61,262 nt of DNA, filler included, from Candidatus Woesearchaeota archaeon (GCA_047603125.1; 6 parts of 6 records of this genome joined end to end with filler, not necessarily neighbours in it); one strand, 5' to 3'. Counted from the first letter of the whole stretch, positions 1-61,262 are shown. Notes: a model not told the origin generated them from the letters alone. Translations and numbers: made by a program.

Positions 1-118
1 TTAGATATATATTAATCTTTCGGTTTTTACCAAAATTTATCAAAAATTAAGAAAAAGTAGACTTTTTACGTACTTTTCACAACAAAGTATATAAAGGGGT
101 TTTTACAGAAAAGCTTGT

Positions 119-562
119 ATGAAGATGCAAAATTACTTTTTCATTATACTTTTAGTGCTTGGCTTTCTCGTTTTGAGTGGTTGTGATTTTTCCATGAGTT
201 CTGTGAGTGTGTCAACTGATGAGGAAAAATATATTTGCCAAGTTGATGAGGACTGTGTTCTAACTGATTTGAACTTACAGCGCACTTGTTCAGCTTGTGA
301 TCCTTGTACATTAATCGATTATGCGGATGAAAATTTTATTTCGGTTAATAAAGAGTGGCTATCTGAGTACAAAAGAAGCTGGATATACAATAATTGTCCT
401 CAAGATTTTTATCGGTGTTCTTATGAAATTGATATGGGCGATGATGATTATACGGATTGTTTGATGCGATTTTTTACCTGCCAAGAATGCGTGAGTTCTT
501 TTGAAAACACTCACTATCGAGCAGTCTGTGTTGATAATGTTTGTCAAAAATATGCTTCATAA
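119..562 (+). CDS. Cys-rich secreted or lipoprotein-like hypothetical protein
   Basis: Hydrophobic N-terminus ending LSGC (lipobox-like); CxxDxDC...CVDNVC motifs; TATA-like TATATAAA at 88-95. Confidence 0.75.
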   Translation: MKMQNYFFIILLVLGFLVLSGCDFSMSSVSVSTDEEKYICQVDEDCVLTDLNLQRTCSACDPCTLIDYADENFISVNKEWLSEYKRSWIYNNCPQDFYRCSYEIDMGDDDYTDCLMRFFTCQECVSSFENTHYRAVCVDNVCQKYAS

Positions 563-578
563 TTTATCAATAAAGGTT

Positions 579-750
579 TTTTTCATCAAATAAATGAGTT
601 GTTCTGTGAAAATAAAAAATAAGATCCGTTCTCATTATTGAGAGTTTCACGAGTATAATACTCCGCTCCTTTAATGCAGAGATACTTGGAAAACTACTTA
701 TTTTTCAATTAGGTTCGAGCAGCTAACTTTTGTCGTTTTTTAATGAAGCT
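579..750 (-). mobile_element. Degenerate MITE (GGCTTCATCC shell) carrying hairpin module B
   Basis: 635-733 is the reverse complement of the module at 12858-13047; decayed terminal repeats tttcatcaaataaat (581) and ttttttaatgaagct (to 750). Confidence 0.6.
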
Positions 751-794
751 AAATAGAAATATACCTTTATAAAGTGTGTATTCTCAAAAAAAGT

Positions 795-1934
795 ATGCAT
801 TTTCGTTTAGAGGCAGGAAATCAAATTGTTATAGTCAGAATTATTATTGCGCTATCGTTAGCAATGCTGGGGACAGTCTGGTCTGTATTCTTACTTCATT
901 TGGGTCTAAGTGAGGCACAAATAGGATTATATTCGTCATTTGTGATGTTTTTGGCTGTGAGCGCGTCTTTTATTGTTCCATTTTTATTACAACGATTTCG
1001 AAAGGGAATTTTGGTATTATGGTGTGTATTTATTCCTGCATTATTGTACTTTTTAGTTGGAGCATATCAGAGTTTTTTGATTTTTGCAATTGCAACATCA
1101 CTTGCAGCAGTTTTGCAAGTTATTCGTGTCAATGCTTTTGATATTTTAATGCATGATGCAACATCCAAACAGACGTATTCTCAATTACAGGGACTTCATT
1201 ATTCGCTTTTGAATGTTATGTGGTTAACAGGTCCACTTTTAACAGGTTTCTTTTTAGCACATTATTCCTATGACGTCGTTTTTTATGTCATTGGAGGTTT
1301 GTTTTTACTTGCAGCATTTATTTTTATATTTTTTCACATAAAAGAACATTTGCACCAATTTACAAATATTCGGTTCCCAGTCATATCATATCTCAAGGAT
1401 ACGCGACAACGATTACCCTATCTCTTATCATTTGGAACGCATTCTTGGTGGAGCTTAGGTGAGATTTATTTTCCTATTTTTCTTATTACAAGTGGCGCAG
1501 GTGTTCAATATGTCGCTATATTTATGGCGTTGTGGTGTGTGCCTCCAATAATTATGGAGTATCCTATTGGTCGATTAGCAAAAAAAATTCCTCTCAAACA
1601 CTTTTTTCGCATAGGTTTTTTTGGGTTATTTGTAATCGCAGTTTCGTGTTTTTTTATAGATAATATTTGGATTATTTTTTGGTTACTCATACTTTCAGGA
1701 GCGTTTGCTTCTCTTATTGAACCACTAAATGAGCCGTTCTTTTTTGCACGAACAAAGTCAAAAGATGAAGCAAACTTTTTGCCATTTTTTATTACATCAA
1801 AATTTTTAGGCCCTGCTATTTCTCGCGGTGTGACTGGCCTTGTGTTACTTGTTCTTGTAAATCAATATGCATACTTAGTTTTTGCACTTATTTGTTTGCT
1901 TTGTTTTATTGGTGCGTTGTTTGTGAAGCGGTGA
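795..1934 (+). CDS. MFS transporter
   Basis: About 12 hydrophobic segments; MFS-like motifs (LLQRFRKG, PIGRLAKK); ATG 795 preferred to GTG 774. Confidence 0.85.
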   Translation: MHFRLEAGNQIVIVRIIIALSLAMLGTVWSVFLLHLGLSEAQIGLYSSFVMFLAVSASFIVPFLLQRFRKGILVLWCVFIPALLYFLVGAYQSFLIFAIATSLAAVLQVIRVNAFDILMHDATSKQTYSQLQGLHYSLLNVMWLTGPLLTGFFLAHYSYDVVFYVIGGLFLLAAFIFIFFHIKEHLHQFTNIRFPVISYLKDTRQRLPYLLSFGTHSWWSLGEIYFPIFLITSGAGVQYVAIFMALWCVPPIIMEYPIGRLAKKIPLKHFFRIGFFGLFVIAVSCFFIDNIWIIFWLLILSGAFASLIEPLNEPFFFARTKSKDEANFLPFFITSKFLGPAISRGVTGLVLLVLVNQYAYLVFALICLLCFIGALFVKR

Positions 1935-2160
1935 TGGGTTCACCAGAATTCTTTTCCTCGAGGCTTGTCTTGGAGAAATAGTAGCTCTTTTTTGGCAGAG
2001 ATGAGTGTTTTTATTATTATGTATATTATTGTTGATTCTTTGAGTCGTTTTCAAAACACACACTTGAAGATGCACAAACGCAATTAATATTGCAAAAAGA
2101 ACTCGTTGAAAAAGCATTGTCTGTCCACAATTATGAGTGCGGATTCTATTGTGGTGTTTC

Positions 2161-2175
2161 CACTGGACAAGTGCG
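2161..2175 (+). repeat. 15-bp direct repeat CACTGGACAAGTGCG, copy 1
   Basis: Identical to 3347-3361; the pair brackets the MITE and the MNT-HEPN genes. Confidence 0.8.
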
Positions 2176-2227
2176 CAAGAATAGTTTAGAAAATATATTC
2201 ATTTACCTCAATTAATGGTCGACCTTA

Positions 2228-2380
2228 GGCTTCATCCAAAAAATTAGAAAAAAGAGCACCTTGCAGCAAAGTCAGAAAATTTAGCGATTCATACAGCTAA
2301 ATTTTCGCATGATACTCAAAGCGGGACTCTTGAGCCAAATCTGCGTGCTCTTCTTTGAAAAACAATTATTGGATGAAGCC
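2228..2380 (+). mobile_element. MITE, 153 bp, TIR GGCTTCATCCAA/TTGGATGAAGCC, 9-bp TSD
   Basis: Perfect 12-bp TIR; TCGACCTTA duplicated at 2219-2227 and 2381-2389; structured core at 2252-2352. Confidence 0.92.
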
Positions 2381-2426
2381 TCGACCTTAGAAAAATATAT
2401 AAATAGTTGTTTAATATAATGAACAT

Positions 2427-2942
2427 ATGTTTAAAGAATTAAACAATTTACGAGTATTTTTAGAAGACCCCGAACGAAAGATTCATGTTCGTGAATATGC
2501 GAAGCTTTTTTCCATAACTCCTGCGACAGCAAGTAAACTATTGAATATTTTTGCTCAAAAGGGATTTTTGCAAAAAGAGATTGTACAGAATATTCATTTT
2601 TATTCACTTCGAAAAACACAAGTAACAAAAGATTTGAAGGTTTTTTATACCATTCAAAAAATACGAGAAATAATTCCACAACTGGATGTATGTTTTGGAA
2701 AGCCGACTATTGTTTTATTTGGCTCAACATCAAAAGGAGAAGACGTTCCAACAAGTGACATTGATTTGTATATTGAATCAGAGGTAAAAAAAGTGTTTGA
2801 TGTTAAAAAAGTAGAAAAGCAACTTGGAAAATCCGTACAATTATTTGTTTATCAAAACATTGCGCAAGTCCCTAATAAACATTTGCGTCAGAGTATTGTA
2901 AATGGAATTGTGTTACAAGGTGAAATACGTGGAATTAAGTGA
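2427..2942 (+). CDS. HTH + minimal nucleotidyltransferase (MNT) antitoxin
   Basis: N-terminal wHTH-like segment; FGSTSKGEDVPTSDIDL fits GSx10DxD. Confidence 0.88.
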   Translation: MFKELNNLRVFLEDPERKIHVREYAKLFSITPATASKLLNIFAQKGFLQKEIVQNIHFYSLRKTQVTKDLKVFYTIQKIREIIPQLDVCFGKPTIVLFGSTSKGEDVPTSDIDLYIESEVKKVFDVKKVEKQLGKSVQLFVYQNIAQVPNKHLRQSIVNGIVLQGEIRGIK

Positions 2943-3339
2943 ATGCGAGCAACAGGGGCTAATACGATCTGTGACTCCCAATATGGCGGTCATTGAGTCT
3001 TTAAAAGAAATGGCTCTCATAAAACAAGAAGAAGTATTTTCTACGCAATTAACAAAGCGTAATGTTTCAGTATATTTTTCTTTATATTATGATGCAATCC
3101 GTGAACTTTTAGAGGCGTTTTGTCTAAAGAAGGGATATAAAGTTTTAAATCACGTTTGTTTAGGTGAAAAAGTCAAAGAAATTTCTCAGGATTTTGATTA
3201 TAGCACTTTTGATCGCATACGATATTTACGAAACGGGATTAATTATTATGGGAATCAAATTGCTTACGAGCCGGCCGTTCTTTTACTAAAAAAAATAAAA
3301 AAGCTGTTTTTGTGGATATTACAAGAATTGAATAAGTAA
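2902..3339 (+). CDS. HEPN-domain protein, putative toxin (true start may be GTG 2920 or 2929)
   Basis: Overlaps the MNT gene; YYDAIRELLEA helix and RYLRNGINYYG HEPN-like motif. Confidence 0.75.
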   Translation: MELCYKVKYVELSECEQQGLIRSVTPNMAVIESLKEMALIKQEEVFSTQLTKRNVSVYFSLYYDAIRELLEAFCLKKGYKVLNHVCLGEKVKEISQDFDYSTFDRIRYLRNGINYYGNQIAYEPAVLLLKKIKKLFLWILQELNK

Positions 3340-3346
3340 TCAGTCT

Positions 3347-3361
3347 CACTGGACAAGTGCG
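3347..3361 (+). repeat. 15-bp direct repeat CACTGGACAAGTGCG, copy 2
   Basis: Identical to 2161-2175. Confidence 0.8.
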
Positions 3362-3377
3362 ACCTGAGTATTTATAA

Positions 3378-5567
3378 ATGAAGTCGTCATATCTGTACGT
3401 TATGTCCCAACCACTCAAACCTCGATTGTATCAAGAGATTATAACGGCAAAAGCGTCAGTTGCAAATACCTTAGTTGTTTTACCAACGGGTCTGGGAAAA
3501 ACAATGATTTCAGCAATGCTTGCTAAACATCGATTACACAAATTTCCTGATATGAAAATTCTTATTCTTGCGCCAACTCGTCCCTTGGTGAATCAGCATA
3601 AAGTTTCATTTGAATCATTTCTTGATGAGCCCATGTGTGTATTTACTGGTCAAACAAAACCAGAGAAGCGAAAAGAACAGTTTGCTAACAATACGATTAT
3701 TTTTAGTACACCCCAAGGTTTAGAAAACGATGTGTTGAGTTCTCGAATTCATATGGAAGAAATTTCCTTGCTCATAGTGGATGAAGCACATCGTGCAGTT
3801 GGAGAGTACAGCTATGTTTGGCTTGCAAAGCAATACCAAAAACAATCAAAAAACCCGCTTGTGCTTGGCTTAACTGCTTCTCCCGGTTCAGATAAAGAAA
3901 CTATTCAAGAAGTCATCGATAATTTACATATAGAACAGATTGAGTATCGAACAAAGGATTCTCCCGACGTTGCTCCCTATGTCCAAGAAACAGATGTATC
4001 CTATATTGATGTGGAACTTCCTGATTCTTTTCGCGATATCTTGCGTGCACTTGAGCGCGCATATACTCGTCGAATACAACAAATTCAACAAATGGGGTAT
4101 CTTAAGTCAAAGCGACCAATGTCAATAATAAAAACGGAGTTACTCAAATTTACCGGTTCATTACAAATGCATGTGAAAAAAAATCCTTCTGATGTTTCTT
4201 TGTATTCGCTATTATCATTAACTGCGCAAGCGCTTAAATTGTCACACGCACTTGATCTTGTTCAAACACAGGGTTTACTTGGTGCGAGAATTTATTTTGA
4301 GACGATGTTTTCCCAATCAAAAAAAACAAAGGCAATAGAATCTCTTATGCAAGATGCTGACGTTCGGTTTGCATATATGAAAATAGATGAGTTGGTACAA
4401 AAAGATGTCACACACCCAAAATTGACTCGTTTATTTGATCTTGTTCAAGAAACGCTCAAAAAAGATGGGGCAAAAGTGATCGTTTTTAGCCAATATCGAG
4501 AAACACTTAAAATGATGCAAGAATTGTTTTCCTCTATTCCTGCCATACGCGCGGCTGTTTTTGTTGGTCAAGCCAAAAAAAATGGCTCGGGCTTATCCCA
4601 AAAAGAACAAATACGGTTGCTTGAGCAGTTTCGCGATGGGGAATTTAATGTTTTATGTATGTCCAGTGTCGGTGAAGAGGGGTTGGATATTCCAACTGTT
4701 GACCGCGTTATTTTTTACGAACCAATTCCGAGTGCCATTCGAACAATACAGCGTCGCGGAAGAACTGGTCGTCATGCAAAGGGAGAAGTAATTGTACTCT
4801 GTGCGAAAAATACGCGAGATGTTGCTTCCCGATTTATTGCACAAAGAAAAGAGAAAAATATGTATGCTATCCTGGATGATTTTAAAGTAAAAAAACCATC
4901 TCAAGAAGTAACCTTGGATTCGTTTGATCAAGAACAACCGGAGTTTCGATTATTAGTTGATTCACGTGAAAAACAAAGTGGTGTTTTGCGGGATTTACAT
5001 GGCAAAGTCCAGCTTGATTTTGCTCAATTACAAATTGGTGACTATCAAGTTTCTCCTGAAGTTGTTATTGAATATAAAAAAGTGGATGATTTTGTTGGCT
5101 CATTATTGGATGGACGGATGCTTGAGCAAGTAAAGCAGCTCAAAAGTCATGTGCGTCGTCCGTTAATTATAGTTGAGGGTGAATCGGTTTTTTCTGCACG
5201 AAATGTTCATCCAAACGCTATCTATGGTTTACTGACAACAATTATGGTTTCGTTTGGTGTGCCTATTTTGTTCACCAAAGACGGGCAAGAAACAGCGCAA
5301 GTCTTATACTTATTAGCAAAGCGTGAAGGCTCAACAAAAAAGCAGCAAGGGCTTATAAAAAAAGCACAAACGGTACAAGAACAACAACTCTTTGTGTTAG
5401 TTTCATGTCCTGGTGTAGGGATGGGTAGTGCAAAAAAACTTCTTGAATATTTCGGTTCGCTTCATGCAATTGTTACTGCTGATGCTGCAGAGTTGCAAAA
5501 TGTTGAAGGGATTGGTGCACAAACTGCAACACAACTCTTTTTGTTTTTTCGAGAGAAGTTTCGGTGA
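3378..5567 (+). CDS. hef: Hef (FANCM-like) helicase-ERCC4 nuclease fusion
   Basis: LPTGLGKT, DEAH, QRRGRTGR; C-terminal VDSRE/GDY/EYKKVDD nuclease and HhH motifs; start may be ATG 3402. Confidence 0.93.
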   Translation: MKSSYLYVMSQPLKPRLYQEIITAKASVANTLVVLPTGLGKTMISAMLAKHRLHKFPDMKILILAPTRPLVNQHKVSFESFLDEPMCVFTGQTKPEKRKEQFANNTIIFSTPQGLENDVLSSRIHMEEISLLIVDEAHRAVGEYSYVWLAKQYQKQSKNPLVLGLTASPGSDKETIQEVIDNLHIEQIEYRTKDSPDVAPYVQETDVSYIDVELPDSFRDILRALERAYTRRIQQIQQMGYLKSKRPMSIIKTELLKFTGSLQMHVKKNPSDVSLYSLLSLTAQALKLSHALDLVQTQGLLGARIYFETMFSQSKKTKAIESLMQDADVRFAYMKIDELVQKDVTHPKLTRLFDLVQETLKKDGAKVIVFSQYRETLKMMQELFSSIPAIRAAVFVGQAKKNGSGLSQKEQIRLLEQFRDGEFNVLCMSSVGEEGLDIPTVDRVIFYEPIPSAIRTIQRRGRTGRHAKGEVIVLCAKNTRDVASRFIAQRKEKNMYAILDDFKVKKPSQEVTLDSFDQEQPEFRLLVDSREKQSGVLRDLHGKVQLDFAQLQIGDYQVSPEVVIEYKKVDDFVGSLLDGRMLEQVKQLKSHVRRPLIIVEGESVFSARNVHPNAIYGLLTTIMVSFGVPILFTKDGQETAQVLYLLAKREGSTKKQQGLIKKAQTVQEQQLFVLVSCPGVGMGSAKKLLEYFGSLHAIVTADAAELQNVEGIGAQTATQLFLFFREKFR

Positions 5568-5615
5568 GTTTGAAAATAAAAAACGTTTAAATATTTGATT
5601 TGTTTTCGAGAGTAT

Positions 5616-5759
5616 ATGGGTAAAAAAATGAAATCTGCAAAAAAGCAATTTATTGGTAGTTGGTCAGATTTGACGACTGAAGAGGTTGTTCGATTACATG
5701 ATGCTATTTCAAAGGTTAAGGGTAAATCTACAAAATGTGTTAAATTAAAAATAAATTGA
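5616..5759 (+). CDS. 47-aa protein resembling the C-terminal half of archaeal VapB-type antitoxins
   Basis: MGKKMKSAKKQFIGSWSDLTTEEVVRLHDAISKVK; own TATA-like tttaaata upstream; below the ORF-track cutoff. Confidence 0.4.
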   Translation: MGKKMKSAKKQFIGSWSDLTTEEVVRLHDAISKVKGKSTKCVKLKIN

Positions 5760-5764
5760 TATAT

Positions 5765-7132
5765 TCACAATCTCACAACCTTTTGTCCATCAGCTGAATC
5801 AATAACTTTGTATCCGAGTTGGGCGAGTTTATCTCTGATGAGGTCACTTTTTTCAAAATCTTTTTGTTCTCGTGCACGTTTTCTTTTCTGAACAAGTTCT
5901 TGAATTTCTTTTGGAAGAAAAGAGACACTAATTAAATTCAGACCAAGTACAGTATCAAATAGTTGTATTGTTTGTTTTTTTGTCTGCCCGCCTAGAGTTG
6001 CGTCTGCAAGTAAATTCTGCACAACGGCAAGTGCTTTTGGGATATTTAAGTCGTCACTAATGGCCTTTTCAAAACTCTGTATGTGCGTTGTTGGTTCGCC
6101 CGTAGTTGTGTCATCTAAGAGTGCGATTTTTTCTCGTAAATTTTTCAAGCCTGCTTGCGCACTATCTAATGCTTCAAAACTAAATTGTATTTGCTTTCGA
6201 TAATGTGTTTGCGCACACAAATATCTATATGCGAGCGGGTCATACCCTTTTTGAATAAGTGTTTGAACAGTGAGAAAGTCTCCTTTGGATTTTGCCATTT
6301 TTCCGGTTTGGTCGATAAGAAATTCATTATGCATCCAATATCGTGCAAACTCACTGTCGTGTGCACATTTACTTTGTGCGATTTCGTTTGTGTGATGAAC
6401 GGGAATATGATCTGCTCCGCCACAATGAATGTCGAATGTTTCTCCAAGATATTTTGTTGACATCGCAGAACATTCTATATGCCATCCGGGATACCCAGTA
6501 CCCCAGGGAGAGTCCCACTTCATTGCTTGATCGTCAAATTTTGATTTTGTAAACCATAGCACAAAATCCCGCGGGTGTTTTTTGAATGTGTCTTTTTCTA
6601 CTCGTGATTTTCCGGTATCGTCCATGTTGAGATTTGCAAATTTTGCATACTCTGGGAATTTTTGTGTATCAAAATAGACATTTCCATTTGCAACATAGGT
6701 GAAGCCTTTTTTTTCAAGCGTTTGGATGAGTTCAATCATCTCTGGTATGTGATCCGTTGCTTTACAGACAATCGTTGGTTTTTGTATATTGAGAAAACCG
6801 CAATCGCTAAAAAACGCTAGTGTGTATTGGTGTGCAATATCCCAGACGGTTTTTTTCTCACGCTTTGCGCCTTTGAGCATTTTATCTTCGCCATCGTCTC
6901 CGTCATCCGTTAAATGGCCAACATCGGTTATATTCATGACATGTTTTACCCTATAGTCAAAATGGGCGAACACTCGCACCAGCGTGTCTTCAAACAAGAA
7001 TGCGCGCATATTTCCTAAATGTGCGAAGTTATAGACGGTAGGGCCACAGCAATAAATACCAACTTCTTTTTGTACAAGTGGTACAAAGTTTTCTTTTTTC
7101 TTTGTGGCGGTGTTATAAATGCGAATATCCAT
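5765..7132 (-). CDS. cysS: Cysteine-tRNA ligase
   Basis: CGPTVY, HLGN (HIGH), PGWHIECSAM, KMAKS (KMSKS). Confidence 0.97.
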   Translation of the reverse strand: MDIRIYNTATKKKENFVPLVQKEVGIYCCGPTVYNFAHLGNMRAFLFEDTLVRVFAHFDYRVKHVMNITDVGHLTDDGDDGEDKMLKGAKREKKTVWDIAHQYTLAFFSDCGFLNIQKPTIVCKATDHIPEMIELIQTLEKKGFTYVANGNVYFDTQKFPEYAKFANLNMDDTGKSRVEKDTFKKHPRDFVLWFTKSKFDDQAMKWDSPWGTGYPGWHIECSAMSTKYLGETFDIHCGGADHIPVHHTNEIAQSKCAHDSEFARYWMHNEFLIDQTGKMAKSKGDFLTVQTLIQKGYDPLAYRYLCAQTHYRKQIQFSFEALDSAQAGLKNLREKIALLDDTTTGEPTTHIQSFEKAISDDLNIPKALAVVQNLLADATLGGQTKKQTIQLFDTVLGLNLISVSFLPKEIQELVQKRKRAREQKDFEKSDLIRDKLAQLGYKVIDSADGQKVVRL

Positions 7133-7136
7133 TGTC

Positions 7137-7283
7137 TTAAAAAAAGAGTAAGTAAAGCGCTGCGCCAAAGATAATTAGCGCGCTAATTGTTGAGTTGTCA
7201 ATGAGTGGAACATTGATAAATTGCATGACTAAGGCAATGAGCAGTGCGACAGCAAGAATTTTGTGAATGTTTTTTCTGTTCAT
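7137..7283 (-). CDS. 48-aa two-TM membrane protein
   Basis: MNRKNIHKILAVALLIALVMQFINVPLIDNSTISALIIFGAALYLLFF*; ends 4 bp before the cysS start. Confidence 0.6.
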   Translation of the reverse strand: MNRKNIHKILAVALLIALVMQFINVPLIDNSTISALIIFGAALYLLFF

Positions 7284-7329
7284 AGTTATGTGGGTGTGGT
7301 GATTTATTTAAGAGTTTTGTGTTTGAGGG

Positions 7330-7525
7330 GGCTTCATCTAATAATTCTTTTTCAAAGAAGAGTACGCAGATTTTACTTAAGAGTCTTGTTTTGAGATTCG
7401 GGCGAAAATTCAGCGGCACTTTTTTGGATTCTCATCCTCAAGTTTGAAAGAAACTTTCGAACAATTGCAAAATTTTCTGATTGTCCTCCAATTGCTTTTT
7501 ATTGTAACTTTCTTTTTTTTGGATG
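7330..7525 (-). mobile_element. Degenerate MITE (GGCTTCATCC shell, core plus loop insert)
   Basis: Colinear with 29435-29628 with many substitutions; right TIR eroded (ggatg). Confidence 0.8.
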
Positions 7526-7574
7526 GTGTTGAGAAAAACGCATCTTTTTTAAAGGCCTCTTACTCGCCAGCTGT

Positions 7575-8312
7575 ATGGATCCTTTGGTTGAGTTTCAAAA
7601 TATCACGAAGCGTTTTAAAGATGAAGTTGTTTTAAATAATGTCCAATTACAAATTTTTCCTGATGAAATTTTTGGAATAATAGGTCGATCAGGGTCTGGA
7701 AAAACCACATTGACAAGGATTTTATTAGGATTTTATCCCCCCGATGAAGGTAAACTCATTTATAGAGGAGAAGATATAACGACGCATACAAATAAAATTC
7801 GTCGCATAGTTGGATTAACAACACAAGAAAATTCTTTTTATCCCAGACTCACGGCTAAAGAAAATCTCATGTATTATGGAAGAATTTATGATTTGAAAAA
7901 AGAAACGTTGGAAACTCGAGTCCCATTATTATTACGTTTAATGAATTTAGTTGGTCATGAAAATGTTTTGGCAGAGGATTTGTCAGGGGGTATGAAGCGA
8001 AGACTGGATTTTGCTATTTCGCTTATTCATGATCCTGATTTGTTGATATTAGATGAACCTACAACGGGTTTGGATCCAGTATTAACTGAAGATATTTGGG
8101 ATATAATCTGGAAAATACATTCGACAGGAAAGACAGTCATAATAATTTCTCATTTATTTGATGAAATTGAACAAAATTGTGGCAGGGTTGGAATTTTAAA
8201 CAAAGGAAGGTTTTTAGCGGTGCAATCTCCAGGGGATCTTCGTCGTCAAAATCCCGCAGAAAAAAATCTGGCGCAAATTTTTAAAAAATATGTGGAATAC
8301 TATGATAGATAA
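7575..8312 (+). CDS. ABC transporter ATP-binding protein (ABC-2/DrrA-like)
   Basis: GRSGSGKT, LSGGMKRR, LILDEPTTGLD. Confidence 0.95.
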   Translation: MDPLVEFQNITKRFKDEVVLNNVQLQIFPDEIFGIIGRSGSGKTTLTRILLGFYPPDEGKLIYRGEDITTHTNKIRRIVGLTTQENSFYPRLTAKENLMYYGRIYDLKKETLETRVPLLLRLMNLVGHENVLAEDLSGGMKRRLDFAISLIHDPDLLILDEPTTGLDPVLTEDIWDIIWKIHSTGKTVIIISHLFDEIEQNCGRVGILNKGRFLAVQSPGDLRRQNPAEKNLAQIFKKYVEYYDR

Positions 8313-10137
8313 AGTGTATTATATGGTGATGAAAAATTTTTTACTAATTTTTCGAAATTGGACGAGTTTTACACTTTTAATTCTGGGTCCGTTTTTTTTA
8401 GTCATAATTGTCGGTTTGATTCTTGGAACAGCCACATATCAAGATGTGCCAATTGGTCTTGTTGGTGATTTCTCACAAGTTCAAGAAGTTGTGGAAGCGA
8501 GGTTTGAATTACAAGAATTCTCAACGTCTGCAAGCTGTCTGGCAAGCATTGCTCAATCTAAAACGGTGGTGTGCGTGGATTTAAGTGATTCAGGTTCTAT
8601 TTCAATTCAGTACGATAATTCCAAATTGAGTGTTTCTCAAACAGTAGTGGGTTTTTTAACTCAACACATTGATGCAGCGTCCAGAACATTAGCTGTGGAT
8701 TCCGCGCAGGATGTTTTTTCTCAAATTGGAACGTTGGAAGATTTTTTAAAATCTGCAAATACATCAATAGCTTCATTTGTGCAACAAGGTGAGAGTGTCT
8801 CACAAAATCTAGAAGTATTTCAAAGCGAACTTAATAAGACAAAGCAAAATTTCGAACCTATATATACTGATCTATTGCGTTTGCAAGAAAACGCTACAAA
8901 TCAAACAATTTTAACAGTTATTGATACTTTTCGGTCTGACATTATTCGTTTACAAGGTGAGGTAAATGAAACAAAACAACAAGTAATGCAAATGCGTGAA
9001 GTGGTGGTAAGCCAAAATGAATCATTTTCTCAAATTCGCGAAATCCAAGAAGAAAAAATCGTGGAGTTATTGAATTTTTATAATGAGAATAAAGATAAAA
9101 TGCCTAGTAGTATTCGGGCTGAGTTTGAAGCATTGCAACTAGAACAAATGCTTGAGTTTTTTGATCAGGCTGATTTTGATCAGGTTTCTGATGCTTTGGT
9201 TGATTCTCTAAATAGATTAGAACAGGTCGAAGAGTTATTGGAGCAATATGATCGGGTTCTTTTATCGGCAAGGCTACAAATTCCGGGTTCTATAACTCAA
9301 TTTGATTCGGTTATAGATCAGGCATCTCAAATTTTTGATTTTATAGAGTTTTCTCAGGAGCAGACGAATCAAACAATTTACACTCTTGAAGAAAATGCAC
9401 AGGCGATCGTTTTGGTGCAAGCACAACTACAAGATATTTTCCTTTCATTTGATGAGGTTTCAAACGTAGATGTAGAACAGTTACTCAATCCACTTACTGC
9501 GGGAGCATCTCCTGCTATTGAAGATGCTTCGCCTGTTCAATTGTATTTTCCACTAATTATATCTTTAATTATTCTTTTCTTATCAATTCTATTTTCCAAT
9601 ATTATCATGTTAAATGAAATTTATTCGAGTGCTCAGCTAAGGAATTTTATTTTGCCTTTACAAGATTTTTTTATATTGCTAAGTTTTTTTCTCACAAATC
9701 TAATCATTATACTTTTTCAGATTGCAATATTAGTAATTTTCATGCAAATTCGATTAGATGTGCAATTATTACATCAAATTCCAACTATTTTTTTTGTTAG
9801 TTTCTTTTTGAGTGCTTTTTTCATATTATTGGGGATGGTAATTGCGTATGTAACACATTCAAAAGAAAATTCAATTTTACTGACAACATTTGTTTCTCTC
9901 GGTTTCTTTTTATTTTCTAGTTTTCTTGTAAGTTTAGAAATGCAGACACGTTTTGTTTCTTTTTTTGTTTCATTAAACCCGATTGTTATCTCTAAAGAGA
10001 TTTTACGAAAGGCAGTTCTCTTTGATTTGGGATTTTTCACACATCTTGCCTCTTTTTTTCAGTTGTTGTTTTATGTGTTTATTCTTGCCGTTTTATTGTA
10101 TTTTGTAGTGGCAAGGCACAGATTTCGTTTTAATTAG
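8302..10137 (+). CDS. ABC-2 permease with long extracellular helical insert (YhgE/Pip-like architecture)
   Basis: One N-terminal TM, a long Q/E/L-rich helical region, five to six C-terminal TMs; overlaps the ATPase gene. Confidence 0.75.
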   Translation: MIDKVYYMVMKNFLLIFRNWTSFTLLILGPFFLVIIVGLILGTATYQDVPIGLVGDFSQVQEVVEARFELQEFSTSASCLASIAQSKTVVCVDLSDSGSISIQYDNSKLSVSQTVVGFLTQHIDAASRTLAVDSAQDVFSQIGTLEDFLKSANTSIASFVQQGESVSQNLEVFQSELNKTKQNFEPIYTDLLRLQENATNQTILTVIDTFRSDIIRLQGEVNETKQQVMQMREVVVSQNESFSQIREIQEEKIVELLNFYNENKDKMPSSIRAEFEALQLEQMLEFFDQADFDQVSDALVDSLNRLEQVEELLEQYDRVLLSARLQIPGSITQFDSVIDQASQIFDFIEFSQEQTNQTIYTLEENAQAIVLVQAQLQDIFLSFDEVSNVDVEQLLNPLTAGASPAIEDASPVQLYFPLIISLIILFLSILFSNIIMLNEIYSSAQLRNFILPLQDFFILLSFFLTNLIIILFQIAILVIFMQIRLDVQLLHQIPTIFFVSFFLSAFFILLGMVIAYVTHSKENSILLTTFVSLGFFLFSSFLVSLEMQTRFVSFFVSLNPIVISKEILRKAVLFDLGFFTHLASFFQLLFYVFILAVLLYFVVARHRFRFN

Positions 10138-10146
10138 CTGAATCAT

Positions 10147-10307
10147 TTATTGAGAGTTTCGCGGGTGTAATGCCCCGTCCCTTTAGGGTTGGATACTTAG
10201 AAAATGTCCTAGTTTTCTGGGTTTGAAAAACTTGTGTTTTCCAATTAGCTTTGAGCAGCAAACTTTTGTTATTGTTCGTTGCAGAAATTTGTTTTTTTAA
10301 TGATGCT
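10147..10307 (-). mobile_element. Hairpin module B copy with a decayed terminal repeat
   Basis: 10147-10273 is the reverse complement of 12858-13047 minus an internal segment; ttttttaatgatgct resembles ttggatgaagcc. Confidence 0.75.
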
Positions 10308-10324
10308 TGTTCTGAGTATGTTTT

Positions 10325-10501
10325 TAGTTAGTGGTAAAAGAAAAGCATAACCCCTTGGCGTAAAATCAAAAATCAGAGTGATTGTTTGAAAGCTTCTTTC
10401 AAACTTGAGGGTGGAAAATTCAAAAATATACAGCTCTGATTTTGCAAACTTGACAACTGTTACGAAATTGCCGAGTTCTGCGAAATTAATGCCATCGACT
10501 A
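10325..10501 (+). mobile_element. MITE, TAGT...ACTA shell, core plus 45-nt loop insert
   Basis: Homologous to 42011-42144 and 17106-17239; TTT on both flanks. Confidence 0.85.
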
Positions 10502-10512
10502 TTTTGTCGTAC

Positions 10513-10583
10513 GTAAAAAGTCAGGTCTTTACCATTCTTAGATTTTGAAAGATATTTTTCCCTTGTAATTTCCAAGTATGTAT
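10513..10583 (-). mobile_element. Right end of an IS66-family (ISBst12-like) element, cut by the contig end
   Basis: Minus strand reads IHTWKLQGKNIFQNLRMVKT* (TxKLQGxNxF, like IS66 transposase C-termini) and ends CCTGACTTTTTAC. Confidence 0.55.
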
Positions 10584-11357: not shown

Positions 11358-11429
11358 GGAGAAAAGAAAAAAGTAAGGATTTTTAAAACTATCCTTACAA
11401 AAGTTTGAGAACAAATCTTAATGCAATCT

Positions 11430-11534
11430 TAATGCGACGATTCTTAACAGCGGTTCATCTCGCGAATTTCTCCGGCGCGCAGGTTTGCGAAATTCTGATT
11501 CTGCGCCAAGGCATTATACGTTTTTATGTAGCTA
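11430..11534 (-). mobile_element. Structured repeat, variant D
   Basis: Reverse complement of 37874-37985 and 41692-41802. Confidence 0.8.
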
Positions 11535-12843: not shown

Positions 12844-13224
12844 GGCTTCATCCAAAAAATAACAAAAGTTCGCTGCTCGAAGCTAATTGAAAAACACAAG
12901 TTTTTCAAACCCAGAAAACTAGGAAATTTTCTAGGTATCCCCGCCCTGAAGGGACGGGGTATTACGCTTCTCACCTAATCGCGAACTTTTGAATTGAGAG
13001 TTTGCGGACTAAAGTCCGGGGTATTATACCCGCGAAACTCTCAATAAGAAAAAAGAGCACCTTGCAGCAAAGTCAGAACATTTGGTGATTGTTTGAAAGC
13101 TTCTTTCAAACTTGAGGATGGGAATCCGAAAAGTTGCAGCCAAAATTTCGCATGATACTCAAAGCGGGACTCTTGAGCAAAATCTGCGTGCTCTTTTTTT
13201 GAAAAACAATTATTGGATGAAGCC
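12844..13224 (+). mobile_element. Composite MITE, 381 bp (GGCTTCATCC shell; module B, core and loop insert)
   Basis: TIR GGCTTCATCCAA/TTGGATGAAGCC; imperfect flanking duplication ACTACACCC/ACTCACCC; core at 13055-13193. Confidence 0.9.
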
Positions 13225-17062: not shown

Positions 17063-17105
17063 AAGAGTATTTATCACGGGCTGGTTTATAAAACTTATGT
17101 GGATA

Positions 17106-17239
17106 TAGTCGACGACATTAATTTCGCATAACTCGGCGATTTCACGACAGCTGTCAAGTTTGCAAAATCAGAGCTGCATGAATCGCTCTGATTTTTGATT
17201 TTACGCCAAGGAGTTATGCTTTTCTTTTGCCGCTAACTA
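17106..17239 (-). mobile_element. MITE, TAGT...ACTA shell, 134 bp
   Basis: Reverse complement of 42011-42144, one difference seen; ATA on both flanks. Confidence 0.9.
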
Positions 17240-29434: not shown

Positions 29435-29628
29435 GGCTTCATCCTATAATTGTTTTCAAAAAAGAGCACGCAGATTTTGCTCAAGAGTCCCGCTTTGAGA
29501 ATCGTGCGAAAATTTGCCTGCAACTTTTCGGATTCTCATCCTCAAGTTTGAAAGAAGCTTTCAAACAATCACCAAATTTTCTAATCTAGCTGCAAGGTGC
29601 TCTTTTTTTTTATTTTTTGGATGGAGCC
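29435..29628 (-). mobile_element. MITE (GGCTTCATCC shell, core plus loop insert), 9-bp TSD
   Basis: Ends GGCTTCATCC and GGATGGAGCC; GTTTTTTTG duplicated at 29426-29434 and 29629-29637. Confidence 0.92.
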
Positions 29629-31392: not shown

Positions 31393-31556
31393 CAAGTCAC
31401 AAGCGACCAGAAAAATGGGAGCGCCGGGACTCTTTTTTGTTTCTCAAAAAAGTCGAGCAACCAAAGTTGCGAAGATGTTCAAGTCACAAGCGACCAGAAA
31501 AATGGGAGCGCCGGGACTCTTTTTTGTTTCTCAAAAAAGTCGAGCAACCAAAGTTG
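31393..31556. repeat. 87-bp tandem repeat (about 1.9 copies, cut by the contig end)
   Basis: CAAGTCACAAGCGACC... at 31393 and 31480, identical over the visible overlap. Confidence 0.85.
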
Positions 31557-32189: not shown

Positions 32190-32313
32190 GGGTGCATAGT
32201 ATAAGCTGGCTAGTATAGGGGCCTCCAGTGTAATGGAGCGATGAGCACATTTGTGCGATGATTAACCAAAACGAAGAAAGCCTCGGATCTGGGTTCAAAT
32301 CCCAGTGCGCCCA
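32190..32313 (+). tRNA. trnW: tRNA-Trp(CCA) with a ~50-nt intron at 37/38 (about 32229-32278)
   Basis: Acceptor GGGTGCA/TGCGCCC; anticodon stem GGGGC/GCCTC with CCA at 32225-32227; T-arm CTGGG-TTCAAAT-CCCAG. Confidence 0.92.
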
Positions 32314-37249: not shown

Positions 37250-37830
37250 TATTCTCGAATATATACTCGCTCCATAATCAATGGTTCGATGGGTCTGTCT
37301 GCCATGTCTGTTGGAAGTTGTGAAATCGCATCAACGACATCCATTCCTTCAACAACCACACCGAAAACAGGATGCTTGATTTGCATTGGTGATCGATCCC
37401 AATCAAGGTTTGTATTGTCTGCAACATTGATGAAAAACTGACTTCCACCGGAGTTTGGCCTGCCCGTGTTTGCCATTGAAATAGTTCCACGTACATTGCT
37501 AGTGCGCTCGTTTTCTATGAATTCATCTTCAATAGTATACCCTGGTCCACCAGTACCTGTACCTGTTGGATCGCCACCCTGAATCATAAATCCATCAATA
37601 ACTCGATGAAAGACAACATCGTCATAAAACCCCTGTCTTGTTAAATTGTAAAAATTTCCTGCGGTGATTGGCATAATATCCATATATAATTCAATTACAA
37701 TATCTCCATGATTTGTTTGAAGTACAACAATGGGATTTTGTTCAGTTTGAGGTTCTTCTGGTGGTGTCGTGCTACAACCTGCGAGTAAAAAAAGAGCAAT
37801 ACACACACTGCCTATATGAATCCATTTCAT
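37249..37830 (-). CDS. Cyclophilin-type peptidyl-prolyl isomerase, lipoprotein
   Basis: LLAGC; FHRVIDGFMIQGGDP, SMANTG, GGSQFFIN. Confidence 0.95.
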   Translation of the reverse strand: MKWIHIGSVCIALFLLAGCSTTPPEEPQTEQNPIVVLQTNHGDIVIELYMDIMPITAGNFYNLTRQGFYDDVVFHRVIDGFMIQGGDPTGTGTGGPGYTIEDEFIENERTSNVRGTISMANTGRPNSGGSQFFINVADNTNLDWDRSPMQIKHPVFGVVVEGMDVVDAISQLPTDMADRPIEPLIMERVYIRE

Positions 37831-37873
37831 AGGTATTTTGAGCAAAGATGTGTTTAAAAAGGTTTTTGAAAAA

Positions 37874-37985
37874 TAGTTAGTGGCAATAAAAAATTATAAT
37901 GCCTTGGCGTAGAATCAGAATTTCGCGAAGCTCTGCGCCTGAGAAATTCGCAAGATGAACCGCTGTTCCAAAATCGCCGCATTAT
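37874..37985 (+). mobile_element. Structured repeat, variant D (TAGT left end)
   Basis: Homologous to 41692-41802 and 11430-11534. Confidence 0.85.
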
Positions 37986-38098
37986 GTGAAAATTATCCTG
38001 ATTTTCACATTTAGAAATCGCTTTTTTAGAAAGGTCTGAATAGACTCCAATTAAGCAGCGAATTCTAAGTATAATTTACTTCTGTCTAAAATTAAAAA

Positions 38099-38110
38099 GG
38101 CTTCATCTAA
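38099..38110 (+). repeat. Solo GGCTTCATC terminal repeat
   Basis: GGCTTCATCTAA followed by an A-tract, as at the other MITE ends. Confidence 0.5.
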
Positions 38111-38133
38111 AAAAAGATTAAAATACAGTACTA

Positions 38134-39666
38134 TCAAGTATCAAAAGAAAATAATGTTCCTTGAGTGTGGTCGCTTACTTCTTGTCCGACTTGTTTTTTT
38201 AGTGATATGGCCATCTGTTTTCCAACCATAACAACCAGTTTTTCTATCGCCACCTCTCGCAAATCAGCTAATGTACAAACGCCATTAGAAAATAATGTTC
38301 GTGCACGAACGCGTCCTATACTTTTTAATTGCAAAAGCGGGAGCAATTCTTCTTTTGCACCATATTTTATTCTGGTCCGAAGCATTGTTAATTGTTTTAT
38401 GCAATTTGTTTGATGTAGTACCTGGGCGAGTTGCGTTGCACAATACAGCAACCAATCAATGATTTCGTTTTTGGCATGAATTTCTCCGGGGCGAATGTCA
38501 TACTTTTTTAATAATTGATCTTCGGAGAGTTCACTTATCCAATCTTCAAAATAGCAGGATGTTTTTATTGCTTCTAAATAGTCGCTATATTGTGGGTCGT
38601 AAAGAGTCGGGACATCAATGAGCAACGTACTTTCTCGCTCAAGAACAACTCCATGAACAGATTCGAGTTCAGATTGTTTCACACGCAAGCGTGGTTGCAT
38701 TTCATTTGTCATACAAAATAAATGTATGAGACCAAAGGTATGAAGTGGCTTTTGCAACCCTTCGACAATCATATGTGCGCTGAGTGGGTCAAGATAGAGT
38801 TGACTTACTCGCCGTCCTAAAGGCGTTACTTGTAATGATTGTTGATCTAATTGATCTGCATCTAAAAAATCAGCGTCTTTTTTTTCAAGAAATCCGTATT
38901 GCGTTAATAATCCAATCACACGGAAAATAATTTGTTCTAGTTTTGCCATGTCTTTGTATTGGTACGCCCAGAAAGTTTGCGAGAAAAAATCAGATAATTG
39001 TTTTTGTGTTTTACAAAGTCCTGTAGCAAGTAAAGACAGAACATAGGTTCGCAATACTGGTTCAACTGCAAGTTTGGAATAAATCGGTTCGACTTCTCCA
39101 CAAATAAATGTCTCGTATAATTTTATTGCGTCATTTTGATTTTTTGCAATCATGATTGCCTCTCCAAAAGATTCTTTGCCTGGACGACCTGCTCTGCCAG
39201 CCATTTGTAAATACTCTAAGACGGCAATATATTGCATTCCCCATGAGCCCGTGTAGCGCTTCATATCGCGCAATATTGTTCGAAAGGCAGGCAAATCAAG
39301 TCCTGCTGCAAGTGTAGGTGTGCAGACAATTAATGGAAGCAATCCTTTGGAAAATGCGGACTCGATGAGTTGCTTTTGCTCACCAGCTAGACCTGCATGA
39401 TGAAAAGCAACGCCTCTTTCAACTGAATAGGCTAATTTTTTACATTGGTCTGTAGGGGAAGAAAGAACGCCAAGTACTTGTTTACTTAATTCTTTTAGGG
39501 CTTGCTTTTGAATATGTTCTTCTTTGAGAACTTTACTAATATCAAGTGCGACTTTTTGTGCAGATCGCTTTGAGCTGACAAATACCAGTGCTTGTTTTTT
39601 TTTAACAACGGTATCATATGATACATTAATCGTTGCATCCTTACTCACACTTTGAATCAGACTCAT
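38134..39666 (-). CDS. Hel308/Hjm helicase lacking the N-terminal RecA1 (Walker A/B) domain
   Basis: FHHAGL, TPTLAAGLDLPA, QMAGRAGRP, winged helix, IGRVRAR HhH; no GKT or DExH. Confidence 0.85.
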   Translation of the reverse strand: MSLIQSVSKDATINVSYDTVVKKKQALVFVSSKRSAQKVALDISKVLKEEHIQKQALKELSKQVLGVLSSPTDQCKKLAYSVERGVAFHHAGLAGEQKQLIESAFSKGLLPLIVCTPTLAAGLDLPAFRTILRDMKRYTGSWGMQYIAVLEYLQMAGRAGRPGKESFGEAIMIAKNQNDAIKLYETFICGEVEPIYSKLAVEPVLRTYVLSLLATGLCKTQKQLSDFFSQTFWAYQYKDMAKLEQIIFRVIGLLTQYGFLEKKDADFLDADQLDQQSLQVTPLGRRVSQLYLDPLSAHMIVEGLQKPLHTFGLIHLFCMTNEMQPRLRVKQSELESVHGVVLERESTLLIDVPTLYDPQYSDYLEAIKTSCYFEDWISELSEDQLLKKYDIRPGEIHAKNEIIDWLLYCATQLAQVLHQTNCIKQLTMLRTRIKYGAKEELLPLLQLKSIGRVRARTLFSNGVCTLADLREVAIEKLVVMVGKQMAISLKKQVGQEVSDHTQGTLFSFDT

Positions 39667-39728
39667 ACTTGGTTGAAAGAATATATGGTTTAAAAGTCTT
39701 TACCATTCTTTTTTGAAATTTTAAGTCC

Positions 39729-39826
39729 AGCTACTGCACGGCGATTTTTCGACGGGTGTCTATTTTGCGTCAAAGCACCTGCATGATTCGGTGCTTCTCC
39801 TGATTTTGCGCCAAGGTGCGGTAGCT
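39729..39826 (-). repeat. Structured repeat, variant E (core only, no recognisable shell)
   Basis: CCTTGGCGCAAAATCA...GAATCATGCA loop...AAATCGCCG with different but complementary stems. Confidence 0.75.
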
Positions 39827-39894
39827 TCCTTTTCATTTTTGAAAATATTTGTCAAACCATCACCTTTATATGTCTGAGAGTTTTCGCAGGTAAC

Positions 39895-40491
39895 ATGCGT
39901 ATATTTATCCTTCGATTAAAACAAGGTGTGACAACCCCTGATTTTTCCCGTTCTGATCCGGTTAATGCAGGGCACTTAGAAATTGCATGCCATTGTATTA
40001 TGAATTCGCTTTGGGTGGGTGGTTCCATTCGCCAAGATAGTATTATACATATTGTTTTAGAAGGTCCACCAACACCACCAGTTGTATTGACTGTTCAAGG
40101 AAAAGAATTGGACTCGCTTCATTATGCAGAAGTTTTTCTCCTAAAAGCAATTCAAGAGAGTCTAAAGGCAGTAAAAAAATTGAAATGGCTTGAAGTAAAC
40201 CAAGGTCCGATCACTTGTCAAAAACAAAGCTTTGAAGGGCTGATTAAAGAATATCATGCAAATGAAGCAAGCATTTATTATTTACATCCAAAAGGGGAGC
40301 TTCTTGAAGAGCAGACAATTGATTTGAATCAACAGATTGTGTGCGTTCTTGGTGATCATAAAGGAATGCCAAATAAAAGTGAAAAATTTCTCAAATCAAA
40401 AGCGACAAGAATAACGCTTGGATCAACTATGCTTTTTGCATCACAATGTGTGACCATCGTTCACAATATTTTGGACAAGAAATACTATTAG
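39895..40491 (+). CDS. trmY: tRNA (pseudouridine54-N1)-methyltransferase, SPOUT family
   Basis: GHLEIACHCI, YYLHPKG, VLGDHKGM, TLGSTMLFASQC. Confidence 0.88.
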   Translation: MRIFILRLKQGVTTPDFSRSDPVNAGHLEIACHCIMNSLWVGGSIRQDSIIHIVLEGPPTPPVVLTVQGKELDSLHYAEVFLLKAIQESLKAVKKLKWLEVNQGPITCQKQSFEGLIKEYHANEASIYYLHPKGELLEEQTIDLNQQIVCVLGDHKGMPNKSEKFLKSKATRITLGSTMLFASQCVTIVHNILDKKYY

Positions 40492-41648: not shown

Positions 41649-41691
41649 TCCATGTTGTTTGTGTGTGCACTTTATAAGTATTTAGTTTGAT

Positions 41692-41802
41692 TAGTTAGCA
41701 ACAATAAAAAATGATAATGCCTTGGTGCACAATCAGAATTTCGCGAAGCTCTGCGCCGGAGAAATTCGCAAGATGAACCACTGTTCAGAATCGTCGCATT
41801 AT
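41692..41802 (+). mobile_element. Structured repeat, variant D
   Basis: Homologous to 37874-37985. Confidence 0.85.
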
Positions 41803-41903
41803 AATTAATCGTTGTTTAAAACGAAAGTAGTTGGCGTCAAAAGTAAGAGATAAATTTTTGCGTAAAAATATGCTCACACCAAAAATCTTCCAAAGCATCT
41901 CTC

Positions 41904-42003
41904 NNNNNNNNNNNNNNNNNNNNNNNNNNNNNNNNNNNNNNNNNNNNTTAATTAATTAANNNNNNNNNNNNNNNNNNNNNNNNNNNNNNNNNNNNNNNNN
42001 NNN
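41904..42003. other. Artificial contig linker
   Basis: N-run, TTAATTAATTAA, N-run. Confidence 0.99.
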
Positions 42004-42010
42004 CTTTTTT

Positions 42011-42144
42011 TAGTTAGCGGCAAAAGAAAAGCATAACTCCTTGGCGTAAAATCAAAAATCAGAGCGATTCATGCAGCTCTGATTTTGCAAACTTGACAAC
42101 TGTCGTGAAATCGCCGAGTTATGCGAAATTAATGTCGTCGACTA
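42011..42144 (+). mobile_element. MITE, TAGT...ACTA shell, 134 bp
   Basis: Near-identical to the reverse complement of 17106-17239; TTT on both flanks. Confidence 0.9.
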
Positions 42145-42176
42145 TTTAGTCGATGAAAACAAAAAATCCAGCAATA

Positions 42177-61199: not shown

Positions 61200-61262
61200 T
61201 GCTTCATCCAATAAATGTTTTTCAAAGAAGAGCACGCAGATTTGGCTCAAGAGTCCCGCTTT
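61200..61262 (-). mobile_element. MITE (GGCTTCATCC shell), cut by the window end
   Basis: Near-identical to the reverse complement of the right part of 2228-2380. Confidence 0.85.

Follow-up and report, generated by a model that had tools for sequence, protein, structure and literature searches.

The element and its setting

The non-coding element at 2228..2380 contains a folded core that recurs throughout the surrounding sequence with different stems. This raises two questions: what kind of element carries such a core, and does the fold matter as RNA or as DNA? The window, that is, the whole stretch of DNA that was analysed, is 61,262 bases long and consists of six contigs (C20, C21, C22, C23, C24 and C26) with N linkers between them. 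They belong to the 1.12-Mb genome, in 70 contigs, of a DPANN/Woesearchaeota archaeon (G000 in our analysis). The GC content of the window is about 36%, and its genes are archaeal; they include a Hef-type ERCC4 helicase, a Hel308-type helicase, a Ski2-like helicase and a RIO kinase. The genome is 90% coding.

Core architecture and copies in the window

The core is about 95 nt long and Y-shaped. A closing stem (P1) and a second stem (P2) lead to a three-way junction which bears the hairpins P3 and P4; the order is P1 - CTT bulge - P2 - YAAARTCA - P3 - GCA - P4 - AAAT - P2' - P1', with the P3 loop GATTCATGCA. In the written structure P1 has 9 bp, P2 has 4 bp, P3 has 11 bp and P4 has 4 bp. This architecture can be read directly at 2252-2352 and in the remaining listed copies, so the view that a single layout is shared by copies with different stems holds. 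The stems are free in sequence yet paired, and the sequences of junctions and loop are conserved. P2, for example, occurs as GCAG, GGCG, GGTG, GTAG, GAAG, GAAA or GGAG, each paired with its own complement. In an alignment of 41 copies no variation is seen at the last P1 pair (C-G), in the CTT bulge, at the first P2 pair (G-C), in the TCA which closes the first junction or at the G directly after P3; all 41 keep the 3-nt bulge, the 4-bp length of P2 and the closing C-G and G-C pairs.

All twelve copies listed in the preliminary description exist, and each of the six contigs holds at least one (signs give the orientation in the window). Five belong to family A. The short-form element at 2228..2380 (+) has TIRs at 2228-2239 and 2369-2380, a core at 2251-2353 and a 9-bp target duplication, TCGACCTTA, at 2219-2227 and 2381-2389. 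A decayed long form lies at 7330..7491 (-), with one TIR (7330-7341) and a degenerate 5' half of the core. The long-form element at 12844..13224 (+) has its core at 13052-13196 and TIRs at 12844-12855 and 13213-13224; a repeat of a second family, R, is nested in its left arm at about 12856-13047. Another long form is found at 29435..29628 (-; C22 8258-8451), with a 9-bp target duplication and a core at 29461-29605. The copy at 61200..61262 (-) is truncated by the contig end and keeps only the right arm and the 3' part of the core.

Family C is represented by a long form with a two-hairpin insert in the P3 loop at 10325..10501 (+; core 10345-10481) and by two short forms. One is at 17106..17239 (-; core 17126-17219) with a 3-bp target duplication, TAT; the other is at a contig start, 42011..42144 (+; core 42031-42124). 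Family D contributes a core at 11427..11519 (-), which matches the covariance model described below, and two elements at 37874..37990 (+; left TIR 37874-37885, core 37894-37987) and 41692..41810 (+; left TIR 41692-41703, core 41712-41804). A family E core at 39731..39824 (-) has tandem G.A/A.G pairs at the base of P3.

The preliminary description had called for a covariance model. The model (R1) was built from an alignment (A1) of 41 distinct short-form copies and gives 121 matches in the 1.12-Mb genome; at E <= 0.01 it recovers 10/12 of the listed copies. The decayed copy at 7330 is below its threshold and is found by nhmmer only (E 4.6e-4), and the truncated copy at 61200 was detected by repeat search and blastn. 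A motif scan together with an nhmmer profile yields about 113 genomic copies, of which 89 are full length. The core had not been recognised as a known ribozyme or riboswitch, and indeed no Rfam family reaches threshold over the elements. With Rfam 15 at the gathering threshold, the whole window returns only a tRNA. Permissive scans of 2150-2450 and 37800-42250 return only Dicty_Class_I_RNA (E 9) and ctRNA_p42d (E 6) over the elements.

Covariation and conservation

Covariation of the multi-stem core, as originally claimed, is far above both shuffled and slid controls. In the 41 distinct short-form copies, 88.5% of cells are paired compared with 63.1% in shuffles, and both sides change in 25 of the 28 pairs; the observed values are reached by 0/500 shuffles. 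If the 3' partner is slid by 1-3 columns, pairing falls to 33-48%. The same is seen in 32 distinct copies from other MAGs (92.2% paired, 61.7% when shuffled). A pseudoknot between loop and junction (GATT with AATC) was considered and rejected, as the junction variants lack compensation in the loop.

In intact family A copies the core is not specially preserved. For the 26 copies of this family with both TIRs, mismatch to the consensus is uniform along the element, with rates of 8-10% (TIRs), 9-10% (spacers) and 8-9% (core). About half of the family A copies have lost their ends or had them replaced. Extra conservation of the core in situ is seen in a pooled alignment; it is gone when only copies with both TIRs are used. 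Individual copies thus seem to drift once inserted, while the fold seems to be retained in the lineages that multiply.

MITE families that carry the core

The core carriers are DNA transposons of 120-200 bp. Stem changes are compensatory rather than codon-wise, which argues that the elements are non-coding. The preliminary description had seen in them a candidate mobile structured RNA or single-stranded DNA. As worded this does not stand, since they are not self-standing mobile RNA or single-stranded DNA: they are MITEs with TIRs and with target duplications whose length is fixed (9 bp in family A, 3 bp in families C and D), which implies that they move as DNA by the action in trans of DDE-type transposases. 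Neither the TIRs and target-site duplications, nor families F-J and X, nor an optional two-hairpin domain in the P3 loop had been noted in that description.

Family A has 12-bp TIRs, GGCTTCATCCAA / TTGGATGAAGCC, which form 27 pairs genome-wide. The 9-bp target duplication is perfect in 8 of these 27, and several others are one base off. In family C a 3-bp duplication flanks 16/18 copies (the chance of a match is 1 in 64), and in family D it flanks 4/5. The ends of families C and D are of the TAGTTAGCGGCA type, and those of F, X and I are different again. The same core is also present in families E, F, G, H, I, J and X, which have other arms and ends, so that it is common to at least nine MITE families whose ends differ and whose duplications are of two lengths (9 and 3 bp). 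Sequence identity among family C copies is about 99%, and many of them lie at contig ends, as after a recent burst.

The optional domain is found in the long forms, in which two extra hairpins follow the GATT of an opened P3 loop (GATT-CAT-GCA). One version of the insert, about 45 nt, is nearly unchanged across families A, C, E, G and X. In family F the insert has a different sequence and the same two-hairpin shape. A third version, in genome G007, is closed by a short stem of its own. The two hairpins at the P3 tip are thus kept with three unrelated sequences. In family A, certain 'short' loops (GATTGTTTGCAG) seem to be what deletions have left of the long form.

The second repeat family, R, is unrelated to the core and about 130-190 bp long; it occurs in the window at 635-760, 10147-10276 and 12856-13047. 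One of its ends is TTATTGAGAGTTTCGCGGGT, and its hairpins are GC-rich. Some A, D and E elements have it nested in their A-rich left arm, at a constant relative place (the ...CAATAA junction).

Contigs from four DNA runs, compared with 1-10583 of the window, are joined only to other copies, and a clean empty site was not seen. Other kinds of mobile element were considered and rejected. An IS200/IS605-type PATE or a TnpB omega-RNA does not fit: no TnpB domain was found in the genome, and the elements have TIRs and target duplications. Mobilisation of the Y1/RAYT type is unlikely, as the only Y1_Tnp in the genome is a 56-aa fragment. A retroelement origin (SINE-like or retron-like) is opposed by the fixed length of the duplications, and there is no RVT_1 match in the genome. 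The Y1 (HUH) remnant, at C25:38117-38290 (L141 1483-1653), still has its HVHLF motif. Apart from it, no transposase-like sequence was found in the genome; searches for DDE_Tnp_1 and DDE_Tnp_4 gave no match.

Strand asymmetry

The two strands differ in the pairs that they tolerate: on one of them G.U is accepted and A.C is not. In family A the ratio of G.U to A.C on the plus strand, that is, in the orientation in which the core is written here, is 49:15 (binomial p 2e-5). The three variable P3 pairs of this family have the Watson-Crick states T-A 20 / C-G 15, G-C 28 / A-T 10 and C-G 15 / T-A 14; the intermediates are T.G 7, G.T 6 and T.G 15, against C.A 1, 0 and 0. The ratio is 16:2 in family C. 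In family D it is about 18:5 after removal of five P3-tip pairs which do not fit the model structure and are the source of 27 spurious A.C cells. The ratio for copies outside this genome is 32:18. What is counted here are cells of related sequences and not independent events; three families nonetheless agree. Pooled over all families and uncleaned, the ratio is 92:69 (model alignment) or 79:61. The earlier statement that stem substitutions mostly give G-U pairs in the written orientation is therefore weak on pooled data and holds family by family. As the elements lie in both contig orientations, a mutational strand bias is an unlikely cause of the excess.

In the E-type families tandem G.A/A.G pairs take the place of A-U at the base of P3, as its second and third pairs; the same is seen in 11/32 copies from other MAGs. 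Tandem G.A/A.G is stable on the plus strand, and the opposite strand has C.U/U.C. The junctions are A-rich on the plus strand. Unconstrained fold energies differ little, with means of -30.8 kcal/mol for the plus strand and -30.3 kcal/mol for the other; the plus strand is lower in 54/89 copies.

An excess of G.U over A.C in the written orientation implies that one strand folds under selection. Together with the tandem G.A/A.G pairs and the A-rich junctions it bears out the proposal of selection on a folded single strand. From these substitution patterns we conclude that the strand as first written is the one selected for folding. The folded strand is probably RNA.

An insertion sequence with a subterminal core

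Genome G007 contains a 1.27-kb element between 15-nt TIRs, with a 390-aa ORF that has a DDE_Tnp_1 domain. A core starts 22 nt inside one TIR, on the strand opposite to the ORF. The ORF passes through the core and has its stop just before the TIR; the plus strand of the core is thus antisense to the last ~100 nt of the ORF. Genome G005 has an element of the same layout with 54% protein identity, and compensatory core changes in P1, P2 and P3. The G005 frame has two stops, which argues that the overlap of core and ORF is not a coding constraint. Complementarity of the core loop to the transposase start region is only partial in G007 and G005 (CAUGAA).

The best NCBIfam match of the transposase is ISH3 (NF033541) at 107.9 bits, below the 225-bit cutoff; judged by this match, the predicted protein is a distant ISH3 relative. 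The core-carrying ISH3-like IS is undescribed. By its position in the two elements, the core is a subterminal module of at least one IS lineage. The preliminary description would have been refuted by a match either to a described Rfam family or to the inside of a known IS. The second of these is half borne out: the core does prove to be IS-internal sequence, subterminal in the G007 and G005 elements; there is no Rfam match, and the IS is not a described one.

Remoter homologues of the transposase, which occur in five of the order's other families, stop near residue 315; none of their 10 loci, scanned with filters off, has a core match at E <= 0.1 (best E 0.12). That these distant relatives lack the core suggests that it was acquired by the one lineage or swapped between elements. 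A full IS with core was found for family I only (G007 and G005); the genomes searched yielded no parent element for family A, C or D.

Distribution among Woesearchaeota

A search of other genomes, also called for at the outset, places the core in related Woesearchaeota with a patchy distribution. R1 has matches in 6/9 other genomes of the archaeon's own family, with 2 to at least 28 copies each, and in 2/91 genomes from the order's other families. In a wider sample, 6/150 other genomes match, and 5 of the 6 belong to one family. An exact-pattern scan of one genome per species (185,579 species) gives 40 loci. All of the re-tested loci with true spacing (30/30) match the model; they lie in MAGs titled Woesearchaeota or in bins titled Methanosarcinales, a label that is doubted. 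Eight bacterial pattern hits have other spacings and all fail the model, and the one pattern hit in viral contigs is unmatched by the model. As far as these genomes go, the core does not occur outside a few families of Woesearchaeota.

Several MAGs titled 'uncultured Methanosarcinales archaeon' contain many Woesearchaeota-type cores. One of them shares loci with G008, so the Methanosarcinales label is probably wrong.

In other Woesearchaeota the core is present at low copy number beside housekeeping genes, and transposases account for 0/61 flanking ORFs. Contig C8 of G087 has two inverted cores 3.2 kb apart (L123 1237-1289 and 4503-4555), which flank Kae1/TsaD and a 494-aa ORF. The two have an identical 53-nt 5' half and different P1 and P4; this pair points to exchange between copies.

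Insertion sites and promoters

Of the 113 copies in the genome, 32 are between divergent genes, 45 between tandem genes and 3 between convergent genes; 19 are at contig edges and 14 overlap an ORF call. Copies between tandem genes lie along the gene direction in 24 cases and against it in 21. Start codons cluster 36-44 nt past the element ends. A TATA-like box is found at most 32 nt from an end in 64/89 copies (families A, C and D), mostly 13-16 nt off; these boxes are mostly palindromic (TTTATAAA, TTTTAAAA). Examples of the promoter spacing in the window are seen at 2381-2426 and 17077-17105. The box is at the 5' end only or the 3' end only in the ratios 19:6 (A), 5:9 (C) and 8:5 (D), which is a bias in family A and none in C or D; a bias of orientation toward genes or TATA boxes was rejected as inconsistent across families. 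The TATA spacing suggests either that insertion is directed to promoters or that insertion sites are very strongly filtered. It can stem from target choice, or mark the sole site that is tolerated in so densely coding a genome.

Possible functions of the core

The reading that we prefer, and to which we give about an even chance, is that the core is a transposon-borne cis element which works through its folded plus strand, most simply as RNA. The plus strand would be read inward from the element end, and its intact fold would be required in the lineages that multiply. Most likely it would serve the transposon as a structured RNA, antisense or regulatory, in principle like RNA-OUT of IS10. The MITEs would have inherited the core from IS ends or exchanged it among themselves. 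Several observations count against RNA. No convincing internal promoter was seen on reading the elements; the energies of the two strands are nearly equal; there is no preference for gene orientation (24 vs 21); and the pooled G.U:A.C ratio is only 92:69 or 79:61. In addition, a core-bearing IS was found for one family only, the remoter homologues lack the core, and no parents of families A, C and D were found. A search for sequencing runs with this DNA gave none of RNA. We know of no documented case in which the 3' end of a transposase gene is a control point for antisense RNA. A bolder version, which we regard as unlikely, makes the core a new class of structured RNA on DNA transposons that is needed for their spread. 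In one form it would couple the transposition machinery to archaeal core promoters; such coupling would explain both why three families with different ends and duplication lengths end 13-16 nt from a palindromic TATA box and why a strand-specific fold is retained in the lineages that multiply.

In a first rival reading the fold would matter as DNA only, with a foldback or cruciform of the MITE that joins the TIRs or marks the element for transposase. In every family the whole element, TIRs included, is a long imperfect palindrome, the strands fold about equally without constraints, tandem-gene orientation is even and no internal promoter was recognised. Many copies also lie between divergent promoters (32 divergent vs 3 convergent spacers). 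In the twin-domain model negative supercoiling arises between divergent promoters, and supercoiling would favour extrusion. A cruciform, however, folds both strands, and equal G.T and A.C would be expected; the observed values are 49:15, 16:2 and 18:5. Tandem G.A pairs are favourable on one strand only, and neither conserved junctions and loops nor an optional branched domain would be needed. We place this DNA reading on the unlikely side. The promoter data invite another view, in which the host has taken over the core as a promoter-proximal insulator, terminator or regulatory RNA that works locus by locus, and the MITEs just spread it. The ends 13-16 nt from a TATA-like box (64/89 copies in A, C and D) and the start codons clustered 36-44 nt outside the ends agree with this, as do the low-copy cores beside housekeeping genes in other Woesearchaeota (transposases in 0/61 flanking ORFs), some of which are without recognisable inverted repeats outside P1. 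The A-rich left arm would also give a U-run after a hairpin on the minus strand. Yet intact family A cores are no better conserved than TIRs and spacers, the core is as patchy as mobile DNA (6/9, 2/91 and 6/150 genomes in the three samples), and the orientation toward TATA boxes is inconsistent (19:6, 5:9 and 8:5). Closeness to promoters can moreover reflect target choice or the scarcity of tolerated sites in a 90% coding genome. Host takeover is in our estimate decidedly unlikely.

The invariant bulge recalls processing by the archaeal splicing endonuclease. The BHB motif consists of two 3-nt bulges on opposite strands with a 4-bp helix between them and flanking helices, each bulge lying 3' of the central helix. 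In a relaxed bulge-helix-bulge the endonuclease would cut and circularise the transcript, as a counterpart of RNase III on Correia elements. All 41 aligned copies have the 3-nt bulge, a P2 of 4 bp and the same closing pairs (C-G and G-C), and the genome encodes a splicing endonuclease, an RtcB ligase and four intron-bearing tRNAs. The polarity of the bulge, though, fits a minus-strand transcript only (bulge AAG), while the G.U asymmetry favours the plus strand. The second 3-nt bulge is absent: 3-4 nt face 5-8 nt of junction, with at most one inner bp. A single endonuclease gene was found, with a 173-aa frame, which suggests the strict homomeric type. The core was accordingly rejected as a standard substrate of the BHB endonuclease, with its single 3-nt bulge, no inner helix and wrong-strand polarity; for the same reasons the relaxed version is the weakest rival and highly improbable.

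Comparison with known systems

Prokaryotic MITEs with structured interiors include the Correia elements of Neisseria, RUP, ERIC and the Sulfolobus elements SM1-SM4. Like these, the present elements are short, non-coding, multi-copy and intergenic, have TIRs and fixed target duplications, are mobilised in trans, and fold in their entirety as a long hairpin. Unlike them, they share one covarying three-way-junction core across at least nine families with different TIRs and with 9- and 3-bp duplications; the pairing is strand-specific, the P3 loop has an optional branched domain, and the occurrence is limited to a few Woesearchaeota families. The G007 and G005 IS resemble the ISH3 family of archaeal DDE transposons by their DDE_Tnp_1 protein, with ISH3 as best NCBIfam match; they differ from ISH3 proper, as the core-bearing IS scores 107.9 bits against the cutoff of 225.

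RNA-OUT of IS10/Tn10 is a stable structured RNA inside a transposon end, on the opposite strand, which overlaps the transposase message. The core has a similar position inside the IS end, is antisense to the transposase gene and would work in a comparable way. Unlike RNA-OUT, the core overlaps the 3' end of the ORF and not its start, it forms a three-way junction and not a single hairpin, and the sequences are unrelated. Integron attC sites are sites in mobile DNA in which structure is conserved over stem sequence; one folded strand is active and is marked by conserved bulged bases. The core, likewise conserved in structure and not in stem sequence, is a candidate for action as one folded strand; the comparison serves as a working analogy only. 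It differs from attC in that no integron integrase context is seen here, TIRs and target duplications indicate DDE-type transposition, and the core is branched.

Reviews of prokaryotic MITEs are available (PMC10969869, PMC3184786, PMC11602168). In the portions of articles that a full-text literature search covered, no report of a structured core in DPANN or archaeal MITEs was found. MITEs are already known as a kind of element; what is new is an uncatalogued, strand-specifically folded core that is common to several of their families. MITEs are normally defined by their ends, and their interiors are seen as junk; here the ends vary and a branched interior is kept across genera. If the fold is RNA, it would represent an uncatalogued transposon-borne RNA family in DPANN archaea, with about 120 copies per 1.1-Mb genome. 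Such a family would offer a handle on the control or targeting of transposons in very compact archaeal genomes. The tight TATA spacing is a testable case of promoter-directed insertion in archaea. In practical terms, the copies break assemblies (many are at contig ends) and can be mistaken for RNA genes or replication origins.

Other repeats and tRNA features

A simple k-mer scan found no CRISPR-like array with related repeats. The tRNA introns were examined as relatives of the core and rejected, as their sequences are unrelated to it. A tRNA-Ile call with a '192-nt intron' has the look of a false positive. The tRNA-Trp gene (C23:534-657, window ~32190-32313) has a 50-nt intron with C and D box-like motifs (GATGA ... 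GATGATT); in some Euryarchaeota an intron-encoded guide RNA has C and D box motifs. On contig C25, at about 48255-48500, a 93-nt tRNA-Arg(CCT) call is followed downstream by a 20-mer which occurs three times at 82-nt spacing. These 20-mer repeats could be tandem partial copies of the tRNA or an integration scar. Finally, right at the end of a contig, at 31393-31556 of the window, a 77-nt stretch recurs exactly with a spacing of 87 nt; either tandem duplication or the assembly could account for it.
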